A stretch of 64,000 nt of DNA from a virus. Taxonomy: Duplodnaviria > Caudoviricetes. Under the pieces are notes generated by a model that made no database searches, was not told the DNA's origin, and was given only the letters and a program-made list of their open reading frames with translations. Every line of letters begins with the position of its first letter. Position 1 is the first letter of the stretch. The position numbers and the translations under genes are program-made. Location of the stretch: the IMG/VR virus record IMGVR_UViG_3300006133_000325; one strand, written 5' to 3'. Shown here in pieces: positions 1-52,200 of this stretch.

Positions 1-77
1 TAACGGGATGAATCACTTTCTTTGATATCGCTGACTTTTCAATGTCATCGTGCCGTTGTTACTTGGCAAGTCTATAT
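1..77 (-). repeat. 77-nt exact copy of 2335-2411 (5' part of putative ncRNA, cut by window edge)
   Basis: taacgggatg...caagtctatat is identical at both sites. Confidence 0.9.
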
Positions 78-241
78 GAAATTCTTAGAATTTATTTATA
101 CATAAATTAAATTTATGTTTTTCTAAACTTCTTGAGTATACTATACCATAAAAAGATTGCTATGTCAATATATTTTTCTAAATTAAATTTATATTTTTCT
201 AAATTATAAAGGTAATAAAAAAAGCACCTTTTGTAAAAGTG

Positions 242-1037: not shown

Positions 1038-1099
1038 TTCTATACTCTGCATTACAGGCTTGTAATCATTTAAGTTTTTACTCAAGCTGCATTACAGGA
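1038..1099 (-). ncRNA. Twister ribozyme, degenerate copy
   Basis: CUG-UAA-UGCA-GC-[P3]-UGAUUACAAGCCUG-UAA-UGCA-GAG-UA-UAG; P4 weakened. Confidence 0.6.
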
Positions 1100-1357
1100 A
1101 TATTCTCTTTTTTTCATGCGTCTACTTTTTCAAGTTGCGGAAATTCTTCATCCGTTGGACTCTTTCACTTCGCATGGGCTTTTATAGTGGCTAACCATCC
1201 ACTTTATAAAGAATAACTTATTTTTATAAGTTTTTTCTTATTTCTACTTAATTTTAACTCCAGTATTTTAGTTTGTCAATACTTTTTTATTATATTTATA
1301 AGTTTTTCCTTATTTATTATGACAATAAAAAAGCATCTACTCACAAAAGTAAATGCT

Positions 1358-1603
1358 TTAATATTCTTTACCGTCTGGAAATTTAAAATATGAAATATAT
1401 TCACAATCCAAAATTCCTGCTATTTTTTCTAGTTCTTCTCTTGTAAATTTTCCCGTTTTCATTCTTTGTGAAAATCCTGGCTGACTAATACCAAATTGTT
1501 TTGCTAGTTCTGTTATGCTTATATTTGCATGTATGCAAGCTGTTTTTATTTGTTCTTGTATAGTAATCTTTATCCCCTCCTTATAAATTAAATAATTCAT
1601 CAA
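1358..1603 (-). CDS. XRE-family HTH regulator (cassette 2)
   Basis: ISITELAKQFGISQPGFSQRMKTGKF. Confidence 0.8.
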   Translation of the reverse strand: MMNYLIYKEGIKITIQEQIKTACIHANISITELAKQFGISQPGFSQRMKTGKFTREELEKIAGILDCEYISYFKFPDGKEY

Positions 1604-2078
1604 AATCTGTTTTTAGATTTGGAAACATCACAAGTTGTAAGTCGTCCTTATTTTCCTTTGTAACTGTTTTATACAAATAGAAGCAGGTAGTACCATCCTC
1701 TTTTCCATCATTCAAATATATTTCAACTTGTTTTTTTCTCCAATCAACAATCCAATATTCCGAAACTCCAACCTTCTGGTAAATTTCCATTTTCTCGCCG
1801 CGATCATATTCTTCTGTTGACTTGGATAAAACCTCCATAATCATTCTGGGGATTCCGGTCAATGATACATTTTTTCTATCTCTTGTATTACAGTTAATAG
1901 AAACATCCGGTATAACAATCTTGTCATCATTTTCGTGCCATTGATACTGTACCCCATCCCCCAACACACGGCATAAAGAATCTTTTATTTGTTTCCCAAT
2001 CATAACAACAAAATTATTGATAATAAAAGAATGCTCTACAAAAGTATTGCTCATATCTTCTACTGGTATCGAAGACAT
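1581..2078 (-). CDS. Uma2 (DUF820) family endonuclease
   Basis: PDVSI..PRMIMEVLSKSTEEYDRGEKMEIYQKVGVSEYWIVD. Confidence 0.9.
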   Translation of the reverse strand: MSSIPVEDMSNTFVEHSFIINNFVVMIGKQIKDSLCRVLGDGVQYQWHENDDKIVIPDVSINCNTRDRKNVSLTGIPRMIMEVLSKSTEEYDRGEKMEIYQKVGVSEYWIVDWRKKQVEIYLNDGKEDGTTCFYLYKTVTKENKDDLQLVMFPNLKTDFDELFNL

Positions 2079-2137
2079 TTTTTCATCCCCTTTCTTTTTC
2101 TTATTATACCAAAATCAAGCAAATTTTCAAGCATTTT

Positions 2138-2198
2138 TTCTGTACTCTGCATTACGGGCTTGTGACCGGCTGAATTTTACTCAAGCTGCATTACAAAA
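2138..2198 (-). ncRNA. Twister ribozyme (type P1, with P3 hairpin)
   Basis: UUUUG-UAA-UGCA-GC-[UUGAG..UUCAG]-C-CGGUCACAAGCCCG-UAA-UGCA-GAG-UA-CAGAA matches the twister core. Confidence 0.85.
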
Positions 2199-2214
2199 CA
2201 TTTTTTACTAACCT

Positions 2215-2460
2215 ATTGAATGGTTTATAGTATTCTAGTTTTTATAGCCGATTCCGATACGGACACGTCAACATATACTGTCAGCAACCTAGATTGATGG
2301 AGGCGCTCTCCACCTACTACCAGGCATCCCACTATAACGGGATGAATCACTTTCTTTGATATCGCTGACTTTTCAATGTCATCGTGCCGTTGTTACTTGG
2401 CAAGTCTATATTCAGTTCTTGAAATGTTGGATAAACTTAATTTATTTAGTTTTTTCTACA
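2215..2460 (-). ncRNA. Putative structured ncRNA of unknown family
   Basis: Follows TTGACA-17-TATACT promoter (~2473-2501); GC-richer with several hairpins (CAUCCCG/UGGGAUG, GUGGAG/CUCCAU); no RBS-led ORF; duplicated at 1-77. Confidence 0.55.
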
Positions 2461-2577
2461 TTTTATAGCTATAGTATAACACGTACTGAAGATTATGTCA
2501 ATAGGTTTTTTGATATTTTTGTAGTTTTTTCTACATTTATATCATATACAAAAAGCAACCGTTTTATACGATTGCTC

Positions 2578-2766
2578 TTAGATTTCTTTGCCATCTTTAA
2601 ATTTGAAATAAGAAATATACTCAGCATCTAGAACACTTGCTATTGTTTCAAGTTCCGCTTGAGTAAATTTTCCAGTTTTGAGGCGCTGCCCAAATGCGGA
2701 AGGTGTAACCCCTAACTTATCCGCTATATCCTTTTTTGTGACATTTTCAGAATAGGCTAATGCCAT
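2578..2766 (-). CDS. XRE-family HTH regulator (cassette 3)
   Basis: VTKKDIADKLGVTPSAFGQRLKTGKF; frame extends upstream as ITIQQKID like its paralogues. Confidence 0.8.
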   Translation of the reverse strand: MALAYSENVTKKDIADKLGVTPSAFGQRLKTGKFTQAELETIASVLDAEYISYFKFKDGKEI

Positions 2767-2806
2767 GTCAATTTTTTGTTGTATGGTAATCTCTATCCCC
2801 TCCTAT

Positions 2807-2984
2807 CTAAACCTGCGTAACAGAAAATGACGGTTCAGGAATTTCTATATTCATGTCCTTAGCAGATTCCAACCATAAAGATTCGGCACTTTCAAATTGC
2901 TTTATATAATAGTTTGCGTTTGCTTTCTGGTTGTTTTTTGATAAACTTTTGAGCCTTTTTATCAATACTAATTTTGTATATCAT
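2807..2984 (-). pseudogene. Truncated RelE-like N-terminus joined to a HicB-like C-terminal remnant
   Basis: 2984-2892 MIYKISIDKKAQKFIKKQPESKRKLLYKAI*; another frame reads ESAESLWLESAKDMNIEIPEP to a stop at 2807. Confidence 0.6.
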
Positions 2985-3195
2985 TCATTGTCAGCCCCGA
3001 TTCTTTTATTGCTTCCTCAAAAGAAATTATCTCATGCTCTGGATCATTTAAATATCTTTCTGCCAACCTTTCACAAAATAACTCATCTTCTATTTCATCA
3101 TCTATTTGTATGCCTTTTAACAAATATAAAATTTTTGTTATTTTATAATCCGGAAGCTGATCTAAAATCTGTATAACCTGTTCTCTTTCACTCAT
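2968..3195 (-). CDS. Putative antitoxin
   Basis: N-terminus MSEREQVIQILDQLPDYKI paralogous to 739-966; acidic tail; precedes RelE remnant. Confidence 0.65.
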   Translation of the reverse strand: MSEREQVIQILDQLPDYKITKILYLLKGIQIDDEIEDELFCERLAERYLNDPEHEIISFEEAIKESGLTMNDIQN

Positions 3196-3274
3196 ACTTT
3201 CACCTTCTGTTATTATTTTCTTTACAAATTCATTATATCAGATTTCATGACTTTTTCAAGCATATACCGTCCTA

Positions 3275-3487
3275 TCAATCCCAATTTATAACATCATGAG
3301 AAACTGTTCCATTTTCTTCTATATCTCTTTCTATTTCTTCTAACTCTTTTCGTTCTCTCGGTGTAACTTTTGTAAAATCTGGATCCCATGCTATAACAAG
3401 CTTTCTAATGAATTCAAGTGCAAAGTTCTGATCACTTTCTGGTAATATTTCCATAAGGTTTATAGCTTCCTTTATTGCTGCACTCAT
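3275..3487 (-). CDS. Putative antitoxin
   Basis: 70 aa acidic protein directly downstream of a RelE toxin. Confidence 0.65.
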   Translation of the reverse strand: MSAAIKEAINLMEILPESDQNFALEFIRKLVIAWDPDFTKVTPRERKELEEIERDIEENGTVSHDVINWD

Positions 3488-3502
3488 ATAAACACTTCCT
3501 TT

Positions 3503-3763
3503 CTATTTATAAATATCGCCCCTTGTATCAACATTCATAATATATAATATTGTAATTTCTCCATCTTGCTCATAATTATATATTATTCTATACTTTCCTA
3601 TCCTTAACCGTTTTCTACCATCTGAATAGCCTTGCATTGTCTTTATATCGCCTTTTGGTGGATTTTCTGTTAATCCTTCAATGCCAATTTTAATCCGTTG
3701 TTTTGTAGGTCTATCTAACGCATTTATATACTTTGCTGCTTTATTACTATATTTTATTTGCAC
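3503..3763 (-). CDS. RelE/ParE family toxin
   Basis: GDIKTMQG..RLRIGKYRIIY..TRGDIYK. Confidence 0.9.
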   Translation of the reverse strand: MQIKYSNKAAKYINALDRPTKQRIKIGIEGLTENPPKGDIKTMQGYSDGRKRLRIGKYRIIYNYEQDGEITILYIMNVDTRGDIYK

Positions 3764-3862
3764 GTTATATTAACCTCCAATCTGAATTCATTATATCAGA
3801 TTTCACAACTTTTTCAAGCCAAAATTTCCTGCCCCTCACTATACAAACAAAGAACCTTTTCG

Positions 3863-4363
3863 TTATGCTGTAATTACTTCCGGCTCCATCGTCCGTGTTT
3901 GAAATCTTTCTGATCCATACATAGATCGGATATCCTCCATACTCTTTTCCGTTTTCCCGCGTTTCCGGTATGGCTCAGAATGAAAATACCATGCTGATTT
4001 TTTCGGACTCCATTTAAAACGCAAATTTTTTAATATATCCTTTGCTGCAAAGGTATTCCCTGTTACCCACAACCAAGAACCACAAAGTTCTATTACAATG
4101 CCAGGAATTTTCAATAAAGCGTTGATAATGTCCATATAAGCCGATGCCGTTTCGCTGGATTCTTTTGTATAGGTTTCCCCATCCGCATTCATATGAATAT
4201 CCTTCAAACGTTTCCAAACAGATTCAAAATCTGCTTGCATTTGTTTAAACTCTTCTGTAGTATCCTTATCCGGATTATAGTCAGGATGAAACTGCCGTGC
4301 AAGCTTTTTATATTCCTGCTTTGCCTCCTCTGCAGTTTTGCAGTTTTGAAAATATTTCAACAT
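3863..4363 (-). CDS. J-domain (DnaJ-like) phage protein
   Basis: YKKLARQFHPD J motif; IELCGSWLWVTG C-domain; start set at ATG 4363 (MLKYF). Confidence 0.8.
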   Translation of the reverse strand: MLKYFQNCKTAEEAKQEYKKLARQFHPDYNPDKDTTEEFKQMQADFESVWKRLKDIHMNADGETYTKESSETASAYMDIINALLKIPGIVIELCGSWLWVTGNTFAAKDILKNLRFKWSPKKSAWYFHSEPYRKRGKTEKSMEDIRSMYGSERFQTRTMEPEVITA

Positions 4364-4900
4364 GATATTTCCCCCCCTTTTTGATTTTTTACTATAAGGC
4401 ACTATTAAAGACAGAACAGAAATAAGTAACAGCCATAACGAAAGGATGAATGAGCTAAGGAAGCAAAGTTTTTATCAAATAGTTGACATGGTTGCCGAAG
4501 AAAAGACAAAAAATAAAGTGGTAGAATAGTATGCCGCTTTTATTGTGTTCTCTCGCTTGCGTATTCGCCCCAAATTCGCCTTGAAATTGATTTGACGTAT
4601 ATATAGGGCAAGATAATAAAACGCCTTAAATCGAAAAAATACAACCTTTGAAATTCTTCGGTAAATGTTGTATAATAAATATATGATATAGAACAAGTGT
4701 CACATTGCACAAATCAAAAATAGTAGTTTATGTGATTTTGCACAATGTTTGGAGGATGGTGGATGTATGATTTTATCCATACGCAGAATGATGTTTTGCG
4801 CGAGTGGTACATTGCCGGCGCGGACTTGGTCGGCAATTATCAAGTACCACAGCTACATCCGATAAATGCAAGGCTTACACTCCCTGCGCCGCTAGTCTGC

Positions 4901-5329
4901 CTAATATCTCGCAAATCCCCTAACATAGTTTACGGTGTCAACTCCATACTTATTGTAAATCCTGTCAAGCTTATACATCCATCTGTCTGGATGTGATTTT
5001 TTCATGTTCCACAAATCGAATAGGCATTTGCTTACTTCGCTTTCATAATCAAATTCATACTCCAAAGCAAGTCCATCTTTACTGTATGCACTTGTTATAA
5101 ATTTAACATCACAGTATGTGATATAATTACAAGCATATGTTCCTAAATTGCTATAAATTAAAAGTTCCTGCCCATTGTCATAAAATTTAATTTCTTTTTC
5201 CGATAATTCATGATTTTTAATCCACAAATCCTGAAGCAGTCCTAATCCGCTGTGATAGTTTGACTTGATAAAAGTTTCATAATTTCCGCAAGCTTCCCCT
5301 TTTGTAAGTTCGCAAAGCATATTTAACAT
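4901..5329 (-). CDS. Hypothetical phage protein
   Basis: Start moved to ATG 5329 after GGAGG; upstream extension is the ribozyme. Confidence 0.6.
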   Translation of the reverse strand: MLNMLCELTKGEACGNYETFIKSNYHSGLGLLQDLWIKNHELSEKEIKFYDNGQELLIYSNLGTYACNYITYCDVKFITSAYSKDGLALEYEFDYESEVSKCLFDLWNMKKSHPDRWMYKLDRIYNKYGVDTVNYVRGFARY

Positions 5330-5356
5330 GATTTTCCCTCCTGATTTTTCTTTTTT

Positions 5357-5407
5357 CCTGCACTCTGCATTTTCCGGGCTTGTGACCGTCTTCGGCTGCA
5401 TTACAGG
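5357..5407 (-). ncRNA. Twister ribozyme (type P1), canonical copy
   Basis: CCUG-UAA-UGCA-GC-CGAAGA-CGGUCACAAGCCCG-GAAAA-UGCA-GAG-UG-CAGG: P1, P2, P4 and both pseudoknots; predicted U|A cut at 5403/5402; intergenic. Confidence 0.9.
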
Positions 5408-5423
5408 GGCGGAACGTGTCCGC

Positions 5424-5609
5424 CTACATATACCAGTGATTTTTCACATACTCAATATGCGAGTTGGTCGGCAACGTCACATATACATCTTTTGCGTTTG
5501 GATTTGGTCTTAAAATTTCAACTGTGTTATTTTCATCGTCAAAATTGATTTTTGCTAACCTATAATTAAAGTCTTTATCCATTCCTTTATAATTAACTGT
5601 CATATCCAT
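5424..5609 (-). CDS. Hypothetical protein
   Basis: 61-aa ORF with GGGGG RBS and upstream TTGACA promoter. Confidence 0.55.
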   Translation of the reverse strand: MDMTVNYKGMDKDFNYRLAKINFDDENNTVEILRPNPNAKDVYVTLPTNSHIEYVKNHWYM

Positions 5610-5655
5610 TCCCCCTGTTTGGTTTGTTGTTTGCTTGTTTCTGACATTATAATAC

Positions 5656-6021
5656 CACTAAAATTAGTGCTTGTCAACACTAAAATTAAAGTTTTTTGAA
5701 AAATATTTTTGGAGTTGATTTTTTATGGATTTTGGTTTATAATGATTAAAAGCAAAAGAAAGGAAGTGGGGGAATGTGGCGATATAAGATTGATATATTG
5801 AAAGAGCTATCAAATAGAGGTTATACCAGTACCAAAATGAGAAAAGATAAAATAATGTCAGAGGGTACAATGCAACACATCCGCAAGGGGCATGGCATAT
5901 CGGTAGATACATTAAATACAATATGTTTAATCCTGCGGTTGGAACCATCTGATATAATAGAGATAGTTCCCACAGACGAGGAAAAGATAAAATATTTTTA
6001 GAAAACACTAAAATTAGTGTT
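5656..6021. promoter_or_regulatory. Palindromic operators CACTAAAATTAGTG (5656-5669, 6006-6019) at outward-facing TTGACA promoters around an HTH gene
   Basis: Identical 14-mers beside -35 boxes on both sides of 5774-6001. Confidence 0.65.
5774..6001 (+). CDS. Cro/C1-type HTH regulator
   Basis: MSEGTMQHIRKG..ISVDTLNTICLILRLEPSDIIE. Confidence 0.85.
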   Translation: MWRYKIDILKELSNRGYTSTKMRKDKIMSEGTMQHIRKGHGISVDTLNTICLILRLEPSDIIEIVPTDEEKIKYF

Positions 6022-6101
6022 GACAAGTGACAGAAAGCATGTTAATATATAATTGTCCAAAGGAACAAGGACAATAACCCAAAAGGGAGAAAGGAGAACA
6101 G

Positions 6102-6257
6102 ATGGACGATATGACGAAAGAAGAAATGCAACGCTTCTTAAACCGTGAAGCTGAAAAGGGAAGTACAGAGTACGAAGCTTTGAAAGCATTAGCGGATATT
6201 CTGGGAATTGAGTTTCCAGAATTGAAGCAACAGAAGCAAAACAAAGGGGCTGAATAA
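6102..6257 (+). CDS. Small hypothetical protein (51 aa)
   Basis: AAGGAG RBS then MDDMTKEEMQRFLNREAEKG..; below ORF-track cutoff. Confidence 0.55.
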   Translation: MDDMTKEEMQRFLNREAEKGSTEYEALKALADILGIEFPELKQQKQNKGAE

Positions 6258-48206: not shown

Positions 48207-48265
48207 AAGGATATAGATTTTCTTGCTACTTTATTTTATATAGATTGATACATTAAACAGTAATA

Positions 48266-48323
48266 TAGAACAATAAAACACTGGCTGAAAATAAAATAGT
48301 TCAGCCAGTGTTTTATTGTTCTA
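48266..48323. terminator. Long perfect inverted repeat, bidirectional terminator
   Basis: tagaacaataaaacactggctgaa / ttcagccagtgttttattgttcta. Confidence 0.75.
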
Positions 48324-48369
48324 TGCTACGAAAATTATTTTTAACATTTGAAAGGAGACAAACAATTGC

Positions 48370-52074: not shown

Positions 52075-52200
52075 GATGAAAGACATATACTATGAAAGAG
52101 AAGATGTAAATAAGGACGGAACAGGCAGCCGTCACTCCACTTTTGTGGACTTAAAGAGATACTGGAGTGCCACCCAGTTATTTACATTCTTCTCTTTTTT
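52075..52200 (+). ncRNA. Putative sRNA downstream of the PBECR gene
   Basis: TTGACA(52039)-17-TAATAT promoter; closing stem aagagaagatgtaaataa/ttatttacattcttctctt; inner stems; U tail. Confidence 0.55.

Follow-up and report, generated by a model that had tools for sequence, protein, structure and literature searches.

Twister matches in the accessory arm

The stretch examined in this study, hereafter the window, comprised 64,000 nucleotides (nt) of a virus of the class Caudoviricetes (IMG/VR record IMGVR_UViG_3300006133_000325). Its accessory arm, that of a mouse-gut phage, carried three matches to the type-P1 twister ribozyme (RF03160 in Rfam), which we numbered from high to low coordinate: copy 1 at 5357-5407, copy 2 at 2139-2197, and copy 3 at 1039-1098, all on the minus strand. 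That strand of the arm was organized as a row of small cassettes. Copy 1 lay between two open reading frames (ORFs), and the row further held a J-domain gene (3863-4363), a ParE/RelE-type toxin gene with a small partner ORF, an antitoxin-like ORF, a Uma2 nuclease gene (1581-2078), an antitoxin-like gene (739-966), a YafQ-type toxin gene (468-749), and three related XRE-type helix-turn-helix (HTH) genes (2578-2766, 1358-1603, and 242-475), all of them on the minus strand. A megablast of the arm against GenBank phage records returned no match.

When the window was scanned with Rfam at curated thresholds, only a skipping-rope RNA and tRNA were reported, and no twister; the gathering cut-off of RF03160 is 67.2 bits. 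At a permissive threshold, the scan returned exactly three RF03160 matches, scoring 50.8 bits for copy 1 (E = 2e-8), 42.6 bits for copy 2 (E = 5e-6), and 29.3 bits for copy 3 (E = 0.03), and no other ribozyme family in the window. A first-pass annotation of this DNA had placed three twisters here on the minus strand; its coordinates agreed with the permissive Rfam matches to within 1 nt, and the U|A cleavage sites it named (5403/5402, 2193/2192, and 1094/1093) were the positions predicted by the model. The Rfam search that it had proposed as a check came out in its favor at the permissive threshold, with nothing at the gathering score.

Ten canonical phage twisters from public viral contigs scored 44-65 bits with RF03160, every one under 67.2 bits (L006:3688-3751 and L119:5240-5292 are examples), and four further twisters in related arms scored 44-58 bits, also under the cut-off. 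Because 14 of 14 canonical phage copies scored between 44 and 65 bits, the cut-off is too strict for this phage subtype, and a low score was not counted against copies 1 and 2, since the whole subtype misses it. Relative to the phage scores, copy 1 was typical, copy 2 was at the low end, and copy 3 was an outlier.

A custom descriptor search recovered the same three copies and gave no match in 437 kb of shuffled DNA. With a covariance model built from 84 phage copies, from whose training set copies 2 and 3 were absent, copy 2 scored 36.1 bits and copy 3 scored 26.9 bits, and the next best match in the window reached 11.2 bits. The E-values, the shuffles, and the covariation described below ruled out a chance origin of the three matches. 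A further descriptor match at 3377-3432, inside a 70-amino-acid (aa) ORF, was discarded as a chance hit; it barely passed each threshold and was seen by neither Rfam nor the phage model.

The phage twister subtype

The core of the subtype, TAATGCAGC...GGTCACAAGCCCG...TGCAGAG, was present in more than 114 IMG/VR contigs among the matches listed, and a variant with TAC in the loop was present in 33 more. The subtype was characterized by stem P2 formed of UGCA/UGCA and by loop L4 of the form U-NNN-AAGC. All three copies in the window had U|AA after stem P1, GA before the partner strand of pseudoknot T1, and U-NNN-AAGC in L4, which includes the general acid A1 and the general base G; the conserved L1 and L4 nucleotides of the type-P1 twister have been listed previously (PMC5408937, PMC11662667).

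Pairing in T1 was nearly complete across the phage contigs. Among the matches listed, CAC occurred with GUG in 126 of 127 cases and UAC with GUA in 33 of 33, and CCC/GGG, CGC/GCG, and CUC/GAG were found as further combinations. These counts were unbiased, as the partner of the loop triplet lay outside both search patterns. Stem P1 was likewise left free in the search, and at least three of its four pairs formed in 113 of 126 distinct copies, compared with 32% when the strands were dealt randomly; the 126 copies carried 58 different P1 sequences. In an alignment of the 84 distinct copies without P3, with both pseudoknots included, 97.6% of the cells were paired against 82.7% after shuffling, and 11 of the 17 pairs showed change on both sides; none of 500 shuffles attained any observed value. 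The patterns or descriptor used to select most of the aligned sequences already demanded part of this pairing, while P1 and the T1 partner were free in their own counts. Pseudoknot T2 was GC/GC in all three copies and invariant in the 84 phage copies, in part since the search required GC; a twister at 6068-6122 of the related phage arm L149 had a compensated T2, AC/GU in place of the usual GC/GC.

The placement of the subtype followed gene boundaries. In a set of 162 non-redundant phage copies, the median distance was 29 nt from a preceding co-oriented stop codon and 37 nt to the start that followed; 74% were within 100 nt of the stop and 60% within 100 nt of the start, compared with about 28% of random positions, and only 20% fell within a sense ORF, compared with 66% of random positions. 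A stable hairpin abutted P1 in 80 of 132 phage copies (61%), against about 30% of control windows. Judged from these sequence features, the three copies in the window are type-P1 twisters and belong to a very common phage subtype. As a neighboring observation, homologues of the J-domain gene (38-40% identity) had twisters on both sides in L002:7985-8640 and one after the gene in L139:968-1540; the J-domain gene of the window had no adjoining twister.

Copy 1 and its two-gene unit

Copy 1 was a canonical type-P1 twister without P3. Its elements were P1 (CCUG/CAGG), P2 (UGCA/UGCA), P4 (CGG/CCG), T1 (CAC/GUG), and T2 (GC/GC), cleavage was predicted between U5403 and A5402, and the minimum-energy fold was the twister fold. 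In both copy 1 and copy 2, P1, P2, and P4 were able to form together, and nearly every pair had a probability of 0.5-1.0. A hairpin, P0 (GGCGGA-CACGU-UCCGCC, 5408-5424, minus strand; -9.5 kcal/mol), began within the stop codon of the upstream 61-aa ORF (5424-5609) and abutted P1. Upstream of this ORF was a promoter-like site (TTGACA-17-TATTAT with TG, 5649-5677) that matched 11 of 12 consensus positions and would serve the two-gene unit. Downstream, the ribosome-binding site (RBS) and ATG of a 142-aa ORF (4901-5329) followed 27 nt past copy 1; both ORFs and the promoter-like site were on the minus strand, and neither ORF had a family match. One contig, from sequencing run X10, joined 4904 to 5352 and so bypassed the 142-aa ORF, although the joint was weak.

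The order at copy 1 was promoter, 61-aa ORF, P0 hairpin, twister, A-rich linker, RBS, and ATG, with no terminator in between. The two genes were co-oriented within one transcription unit, and the twister lay near the stop of one and the start of the next, as in a ribozyme-punctuated operon. This is the full layout typical of the phage copies (stop, hairpin, twister, and start). Counterparts of the hairpin-plus-twister unit were found in two related phages, L149 and L150. T1 was UCC/GGA in both, P4 was UGG/CCA in L149, and the P0 stem carried compensatory changes in both; decay had begun in the L150 counterpart.

As 94% of natural twister candidates have been reported to be active in vitro (PMC11662667), the published statistics led us to estimate that copy 1 very likely cleaves. 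On release, the upstream RNA would carry the P0 hairpin as a cap at its 3' end.

State of copies 2 and 3

Copy 2 was a type-P1 twister with a P3 arm (UUGAG/UUCAG). It retained every catalytic and loop residue, cleavage was predicted between U2193 and A2192, and the minimum-energy fold was twister-like. Its T1 consisted of CAC against GUA, with two of three pairs formed and one C·A mismatch. The first-pass annotation had reported pseudoknot covariation of CAC/GUG with UAC/GUA among the copies; this was borne out for copy 1 and copy 3, respectively, and not for copy 2. In DNA contigs from four mouse-gut runs, belonging to four studies, a U replaced the mismatched C (2164 G>A on the plus strand), restoring UAC/GUA, and in two of these runs, copy 2 had a different P3 with perfect pairing over 7 bp. 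One defect in a three-pair pseudoknot was reported to lower the mean fraction cleaved from 0.76 to 0.65, with C·A among the better tolerated mismatches (PMC11662667). By our estimate from those statistics, copy 2 probably cleaves.

Copy 3 was a paralogue of copy 2; the two were 80% identical over 76 nt, including the downstream promoter, and had an identical 21-mer in common. The catalytic residues, T1 (UAC/GUA, three of three pairs), and T2 were intact in copy 3. Its P4 was reduced to A-U, U·G, and G·U with an A·C closing mismatch, and its P1 was weakened. The twister secondary structure had a predicted energy of -0.5 kcal/mol, compared with -14.0 kcal/mol for a competing hairpin; the pairs of P1, P2, and P4 had zero probability in the ensemble, and the 84-copy phage model passed over P4 and L4 altogether. 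In natural twisters, P1 is dispensable, and defects in P4 are tolerated unless they affect the loop-closing pair (PMC11662667). The folding models suggested that copy 3 is probably a duplicated unit of the copy 2 type that has decayed and is inactive; from the same published statistics, we estimated measurable cleavage by copy 3 to be doubtful. UAC/GUA in copy 3 is most simply the ancestral state of both paralogues and need not represent compensation in copy 3. The claim of three ribozymes was thus well supported in the identity of copies 1 and 2, but copy 3, having lost P4, is more likely a relic, and the window more likely holds two working copies and one relic.

Leaders, promoters, and HTH genes around copies 2 and 3

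Terminator-like sites followed two of the HTH genes at 1330-1359 and 223-243 in a scan, and a similar hairpin and U-run were read by eye after the third. After each HTH gene, there was a promoter-like site (TTGACA-17-TATAxT) flanked by a cassette-specific pair of direct repeats. Downstream of the HTH gene at 2578-2766, this site (TTGACA-17-TATACT with TG, 2473-2501, minus strand) was flanked by repeats at 2440-2463 and 2515-2538, and an untranslated leader of about 270 nt (2198-2466, minus strand) extended from it to copy 2. A corresponding site (TTGACA-17-TAAAAT, 1251-1279, minus strand), flanked by repeats at 1218-1243 and 1290-1315, would drive a leader of about 150 nt to copy 3. Between these promoters and the twisters, a gap of about 150-270 nt, no long ORF was present.

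Both copies were followed by a second promoter. As the first-pass annotation had noted, copies 2 and 3 ended 8 nt ahead of a TTGAAA -35 box (at 2130 and 1030, respectively). These boxes belong to cassette promoters of the form TTGAAA-16-TATAAT with TG, both on the minus strand; the promoter at 2103-2130 would drive the Uma2 gene and the HTH gene at 1358-1603, and the promoter at 1003-1030 would drive the antitoxin-like gene, the YafQ-type toxin gene, and the HTH gene at 242-475. The promoter at 2103-2130 lay within the 76-nt repeat common to copies 2 and 3. Copies 2 and 3 conformed only in part to the arrangement of a punctuated operon; they were co-oriented and lay in a transcribed gap, but after a leader and before a promoter. 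Promoters of the same type also preceded two twister-free cassettes (3790-3817 and 3232-3259), and the 84-copy phage model detected no twister remnant before either.

The direct repeats suggested a role for the HTH proteins. The repeat ATGTAGAAAAAACTACA at 2440-2463 and 2515-2538 was nearly the same in three other phages (L053:6185-6201, L147:3233-3250, and L149:3222-3238); the HTH proteins of phages with this near-identical repeat were 71-97% identical, and the other two HTH genes of the window had different repeats. That similarity of the repeats tracks similarity of the HTH proteins fits protein-specific operators, and the repeats at 2440-2463 and 2515-2538 are, from their sequence, probable operators of the protein encoded at 2578-2766. 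As the repeats travel with the upstream HTH gene, an HTH protein may control the promoter that follows its own gene.

The same layout recurred in other phages. In L053 (the same contig as L163, with L164 and L165 alike), the order was HTH gene, terminator, nearly identical repeat, promoter, 130 nt, twister, 270 nt, and operon. In L147, a promoter was followed by a 72-aa ORF, 380 nt of GC-rich RNA, a twister, an RBS, and a gene, and in L149 and L150, a promoter was followed by a leader of about 140 nt, a divergent twister, an RBS, and a gene. In L202, a twister lay 140 nt past the HTH gene. As a rule, however, a link between HTH genes and twisters was rejected, since, of 80 loci carrying a related HTH gene, only 7 had a downstream twister; the link is optional.

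The first-pass annotation had placed copies 2 and 3 at the 3' end of a putative noncoding RNA whose end the twister would define. If so, the RNAs upstream of copies 2 and 3 would be functional small RNAs, such as an antitoxin, a decoy, or a regulator, with exact 3' ends made by the twister. Each leader indeed has its own strong promoter-like site about 150-270 nt upstream and no long ORF; the copy 2 leader was GC-richer and moderately structured (fold z-score of -2.45); and part of it was duplicated, with window positions 1-91 repeating 2335-2425 at 95% identity. A twister also cuts near its own 5' end and stays almost wholly with the downstream RNA, which suits the trimming of an upstream RNA. 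The copy 2 leader was not conserved, however: a 31-mer from it had no exact match in the viral collection, and the leader matched no Rfam family in a permissive scan. The twister parts of the unit fared no better, as the twister-plus-promoter block of copies 2 and 3 had no exact match in viral or metagenome contigs, and the 21-mer common to both had none in metagenome or genome contigs. L147 and L148, whose HTH proteins were 95-97% identical to that of the window, had the HTH gene, terminator, and promoter with repeats in common with it, but homology to the copy 2 leader ended about 30 nt past the expected transcription start. The leaders of copies 2 and 3 were mutually unrelated, those of L053, L147, and L149 were unrelated in sequence and length, one of them containing a small ORF, and the duplication at 1-91 may simply be recent. 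We therefore regarded the small-RNA explanation as improbable. Because the leader is unconserved and the same layout occurs elsewhere with unrelated leaders, the RNA ahead of copy 2 is better read as a variable 5' leader that the twister would cut off, and by sequence comparison, removal of a 5' leader fits copies 2 and 3 better than maturation of a noncoding RNA.

A contig from a mouse-gut run (run X14, record 9) extended to the left of the window start with a copy of 2140-2334. Together with the repeat at 1-91, this pointed to a fourth leader-plus-twister unit, with UAC/GUA in T1, which should lie just left of window position 1.

Possible cassette exchange and mosaic junctions

The first-pass annotation had also suggested that the twisters act as homology blocks for cassette shuffling. 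L149 and L150 had 100% identical flanking proteins on both sides and different genes around the hairpin-plus-twister unit, and the unit of copy 1 lay between mutually unrelated genes in three phages (the window, L149, and L150). We examined junctions in 131 copies with full flanks, representing 91 locus families. Only the upstream flank was in common in 16 pairs of families and only the downstream flank in 21; homology ended within -10 to +40 nt of the twister 3' end in 30 of 37 cases and started within -60 to +10 nt of the twister 5' end in 62 of 66. Breakpoints of homology thus fell at twister edges much more often than at other places. Mouse-gut contigs also broke inside copy 2, and weak joints replaced single cassettes, though the sides of these joints were short (25-36 nt) and could stem from other organisms.

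These observations would be accommodated if the primary role were at the DNA level, with the twister (50-90 bp with P0) serving as a recombination linker and RNA cleavage being secondary or merely conserving the sequence. Genes flanked by ribozymes have likewise been reported not to be constant (Perreault et al., PMC3088659). However, phage mosaic junctions generally fall at gene boundaries, where twisters also lie, and the pile-up of breakpoints may have no added significance; the conserved core is short (about 45 nt) and interrupted by the variable P1 and P3. We considered a primary DNA role unlikely. Across phage contigs, twisters sit at mosaic junctions, a correlation that is compatible with exchange but in which any intergenic gap could be the junction. 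The suggestion of homology blocks is compatible with the pile-up of breakpoints at twister edges, which is not evidence that the twister causes exchange.

Two further conserved blocks bracketed the variable cargo of the cassettes. One was the promoter block GCTTGAAAAAGT..TGATATAATGAATT (998-1032, 3227-3261, and 3785-3819), and the other (435-486, 1548-1599, and 2771-2822) began where the cargo ended and reached into the RBS and first part of the HTH gene. The edges of these blocks coincided with weak metagenome joints (1577 to 2097, 494 to 951, and 1581 to 3786).

Proposed processing of the arm transcripts

We propose that type-P1 twisters cut the minus-strand transcripts of the accessory arm, copy 1 splitting an operon and copy 2 removing a leader, with copy 3 decayed; we assign this reading a probability of about 0.7. 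It draws on what the sequences show, namely identity to the twister class, folding and covariation, placement with respect to genes and promoters, and a layout that recurs, from which we infer cleavage in the cell, the fate of the fragments, and control of the promoter by the HTH protein. Cleavage at U5403|A5402 would split the two-gene message. The upstream piece would end with the P0 hairpin, a few nt, and a 2',3'-cyclic phosphate, while the RNA downstream would start shortly before the RBS, its 5'-hydroxyl enclosed by the compact twister fold; such burial of the 5' end has been reported for the downstream twister fragment (PMC8782182). Each cistron could thereby gain its own ends, stability, and translation, uncoupled from its neighbor. 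At copy 2, a transcript from the operator-flanked promoter would lose its 270-nt leader before entering the Uma2 cassette, and removal of the leaders at copies 2 and 3 would make a read-through transcript resemble the one from the cassette's own promoter.

The first-pass annotation had assigned the twisters the role of insulating toxin cassettes from read-through. This was not sustained, as cleavage does not halt transcription and the downstream fragment still carries the cassette. Cleavage would free the cassette message from upstream RNA; a block of its expression does not follow from cleavage.

Several points weigh against the proposed processing. All three copies scored under the curated Rfam cut-off (50.8, 42.6, and 29.3 against 67.2 bits), and a twister that cleaved a 5' untranslated region in E. 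coli left reporter expression unchanged (PMC5052635). The C·A mismatch in T1 of copy 2 occurred in none of about 170 phage copies among the matches listed, and the linker between P4 and P2 was shorter in copy 2 than in any other copy of the set. Misfolding of copy 3 is almost certain. Since each of copies 2 and 3 has an independent promoter after it, the cassettes can do without a processed read-through transcript, which weakens the claim that these two copies matter. Finally, a downstream twister accompanied only 7 of the 80 related-HTH loci, and 6 of the 19 closest.

On such grounds, copies 2 and 3 could instead be functionless passengers, relics of a duplicated block of twister plus promoter that decay because the cassettes have their own promoters. 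The loss of P4 in copy 3, the paralogy of both copies within a 76-nt repeat that includes the promoter, the absence of the copy 2 mismatch from the contigs of all four mouse-gut runs and from the other phage copies, the two cassette promoters of the same type with neither twister nor detected remnant, and the 73 of 80 loci without a downstream twister would all be expected of passengers. Copy 2, by contrast, retains all catalytic and loop residues and folds correctly with a single well-tolerated defect; the different P3 of the related contig still forms 7 bp without a mismatch, an indication of selection on the fold; and the layout of leader, twister, and gene recurs independently in several phages. 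We therefore held the passenger explanation to be rather unlikely and retained cleavage of the arm transcripts as the preferred reading.

A broader role can be put forward only tentatively. In large gut phages, the twister with P0 might form a portable joint, acting both as an RNA cutter of cassette messages and as a DNA exchange sequence. As part of the same speculative proposal, a variant of the joint behind a repressor-type HTH gene might strip the leader ahead of a toxin or nuclease cassette.

Relation to known ribozymes and implications

The type-P1 twister class was described by Roth et al. in 2014, as reviewed in PMC5408937, with rice Osa-1-4 as a model form lacking P3. The copies in the window correspond to this class in the order of their elements (P1, L1 with UAA, P2, T2 with GC, an optional P3, P4, and L4 with U-NNN-AAGC), in the 3' strand of L1 with GA and the T1 partner, in the conserved nucleotides, and in the predicted U|A site. 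The P0 and P3 arms, both optional, also match published descriptions of the class. The copies differ from the RF03160 consensus in the middle pair of T1, which is A-U (CAC/GUG or UAC/GUA) compared with CCC/GGG, and the phage subtype differs in a self-complementary UGCA in P2 and in scoring under the Rfam cut-off in all tested copies. Relative to the class, copy 2 has C·A in T1, and copy 3 is without a workable P4.

The neighborhood is also of a known kind. In 2011, clustered ribozymes were proposed to process polycistronic phage transcripts, and hammerhead arrays were shown to cleave (Perreault et al., PMC3088659), and twister and hammerhead neighborhoods were noted by Roth et al. 2014, as cited in PMC5408937 and PMC6765202. 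Like the clustered prophage ribozymes, the copies of the window lie several within a few kb, co-oriented with small variable phage genes and in stop-to-start gaps, and they would have in common with them the proposed role of cutting long phage transcripts into gene-length messages. They differ in that the classic gene-to-gene position applies only to copy 1; for the leader, twister, and second-promoter layout of copies 2 and 3, we found no published description. Both the ribozyme class and this kind of neighborhood were already known, and the copies add further examples.

Related arms carried several ribozyme-like RNAs. Matches to twisters or hammerhead-like RNAs lay at 1933-1984, 3431-3487, 4596-4658, and 6068-6122 of the L149 arm, making three twisters and one type II hammerhead-like match (33.7 bits, cut-off of 37) within 6 kb. 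A type-P5 twister at L202:4624-4690 scored above its cut-off (47.5 compared with 37.6 bits). Skipping-rope RNAs (76.6 bits) at L151:2831-2911 and L153:2831-2911 lay about 90 nt upstream of an HTH gene, where the window has cassette cargo; the skipping-rope RNA of the window itself (52105-52186, plus strand, 65.8 bits) was far from the HTH cassettes. The occurrence of twister, hammerhead-like, and skipping-rope RNAs together in related arms is in line with the published clustering. At 48246-48340, both strands gave matches below threshold to three microRNA precursor families of plants or insects; these point to a long near-perfect hairpin or inverted repeat and are not real microRNAs.

Two other ribozymes offer functional comparisons. 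RiboJ, reportedly engineered by Lou et al. in 2012, is said to be a hammerhead-type insulator with an added hairpin, placed between a promoter-derived leader and the RBS. The likeness to these phage twisters is a functional analogy, not relatedness: in each, a ribozyme strips or would strip variable upstream RNA to give a constant 5' end. In the glmS ribozyme of Firmicutes, with RNase J1, the 5'-hydroxyl made by the ribozyme is said to decide the fate of the downstream mRNA, as reportedly found by Collins et al. in 2007. The glmS ribozyme is ligand-dependent and marks its mRNA for decay, whereas the twister 5' end, reported to be buried (PMC8782182), may protect the mRNA instead.

Reviews still treat the biological role of bacterial and phage twisters as unsettled and a processing role as unproven (PMC6765202, PMC5408937). 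Specific here are the placing of copies 2 and 3 after a leader and ahead of a second promoter, the three grades of preservation among the copies, and the junction statistics. With an intact, a slightly impaired, and a decayed copy in a single phage arm, the locus is a compact test case. Routine Rfam annotation under-reports phage twisters, as the RF03160 cut-off missed every phage copy tested. The stop and start placement, the hairpin in about 60% of copies, and the breakpoints at twister edges provide testable support for the idea that these ribozymes may delimit exchangeable gene units in phages.

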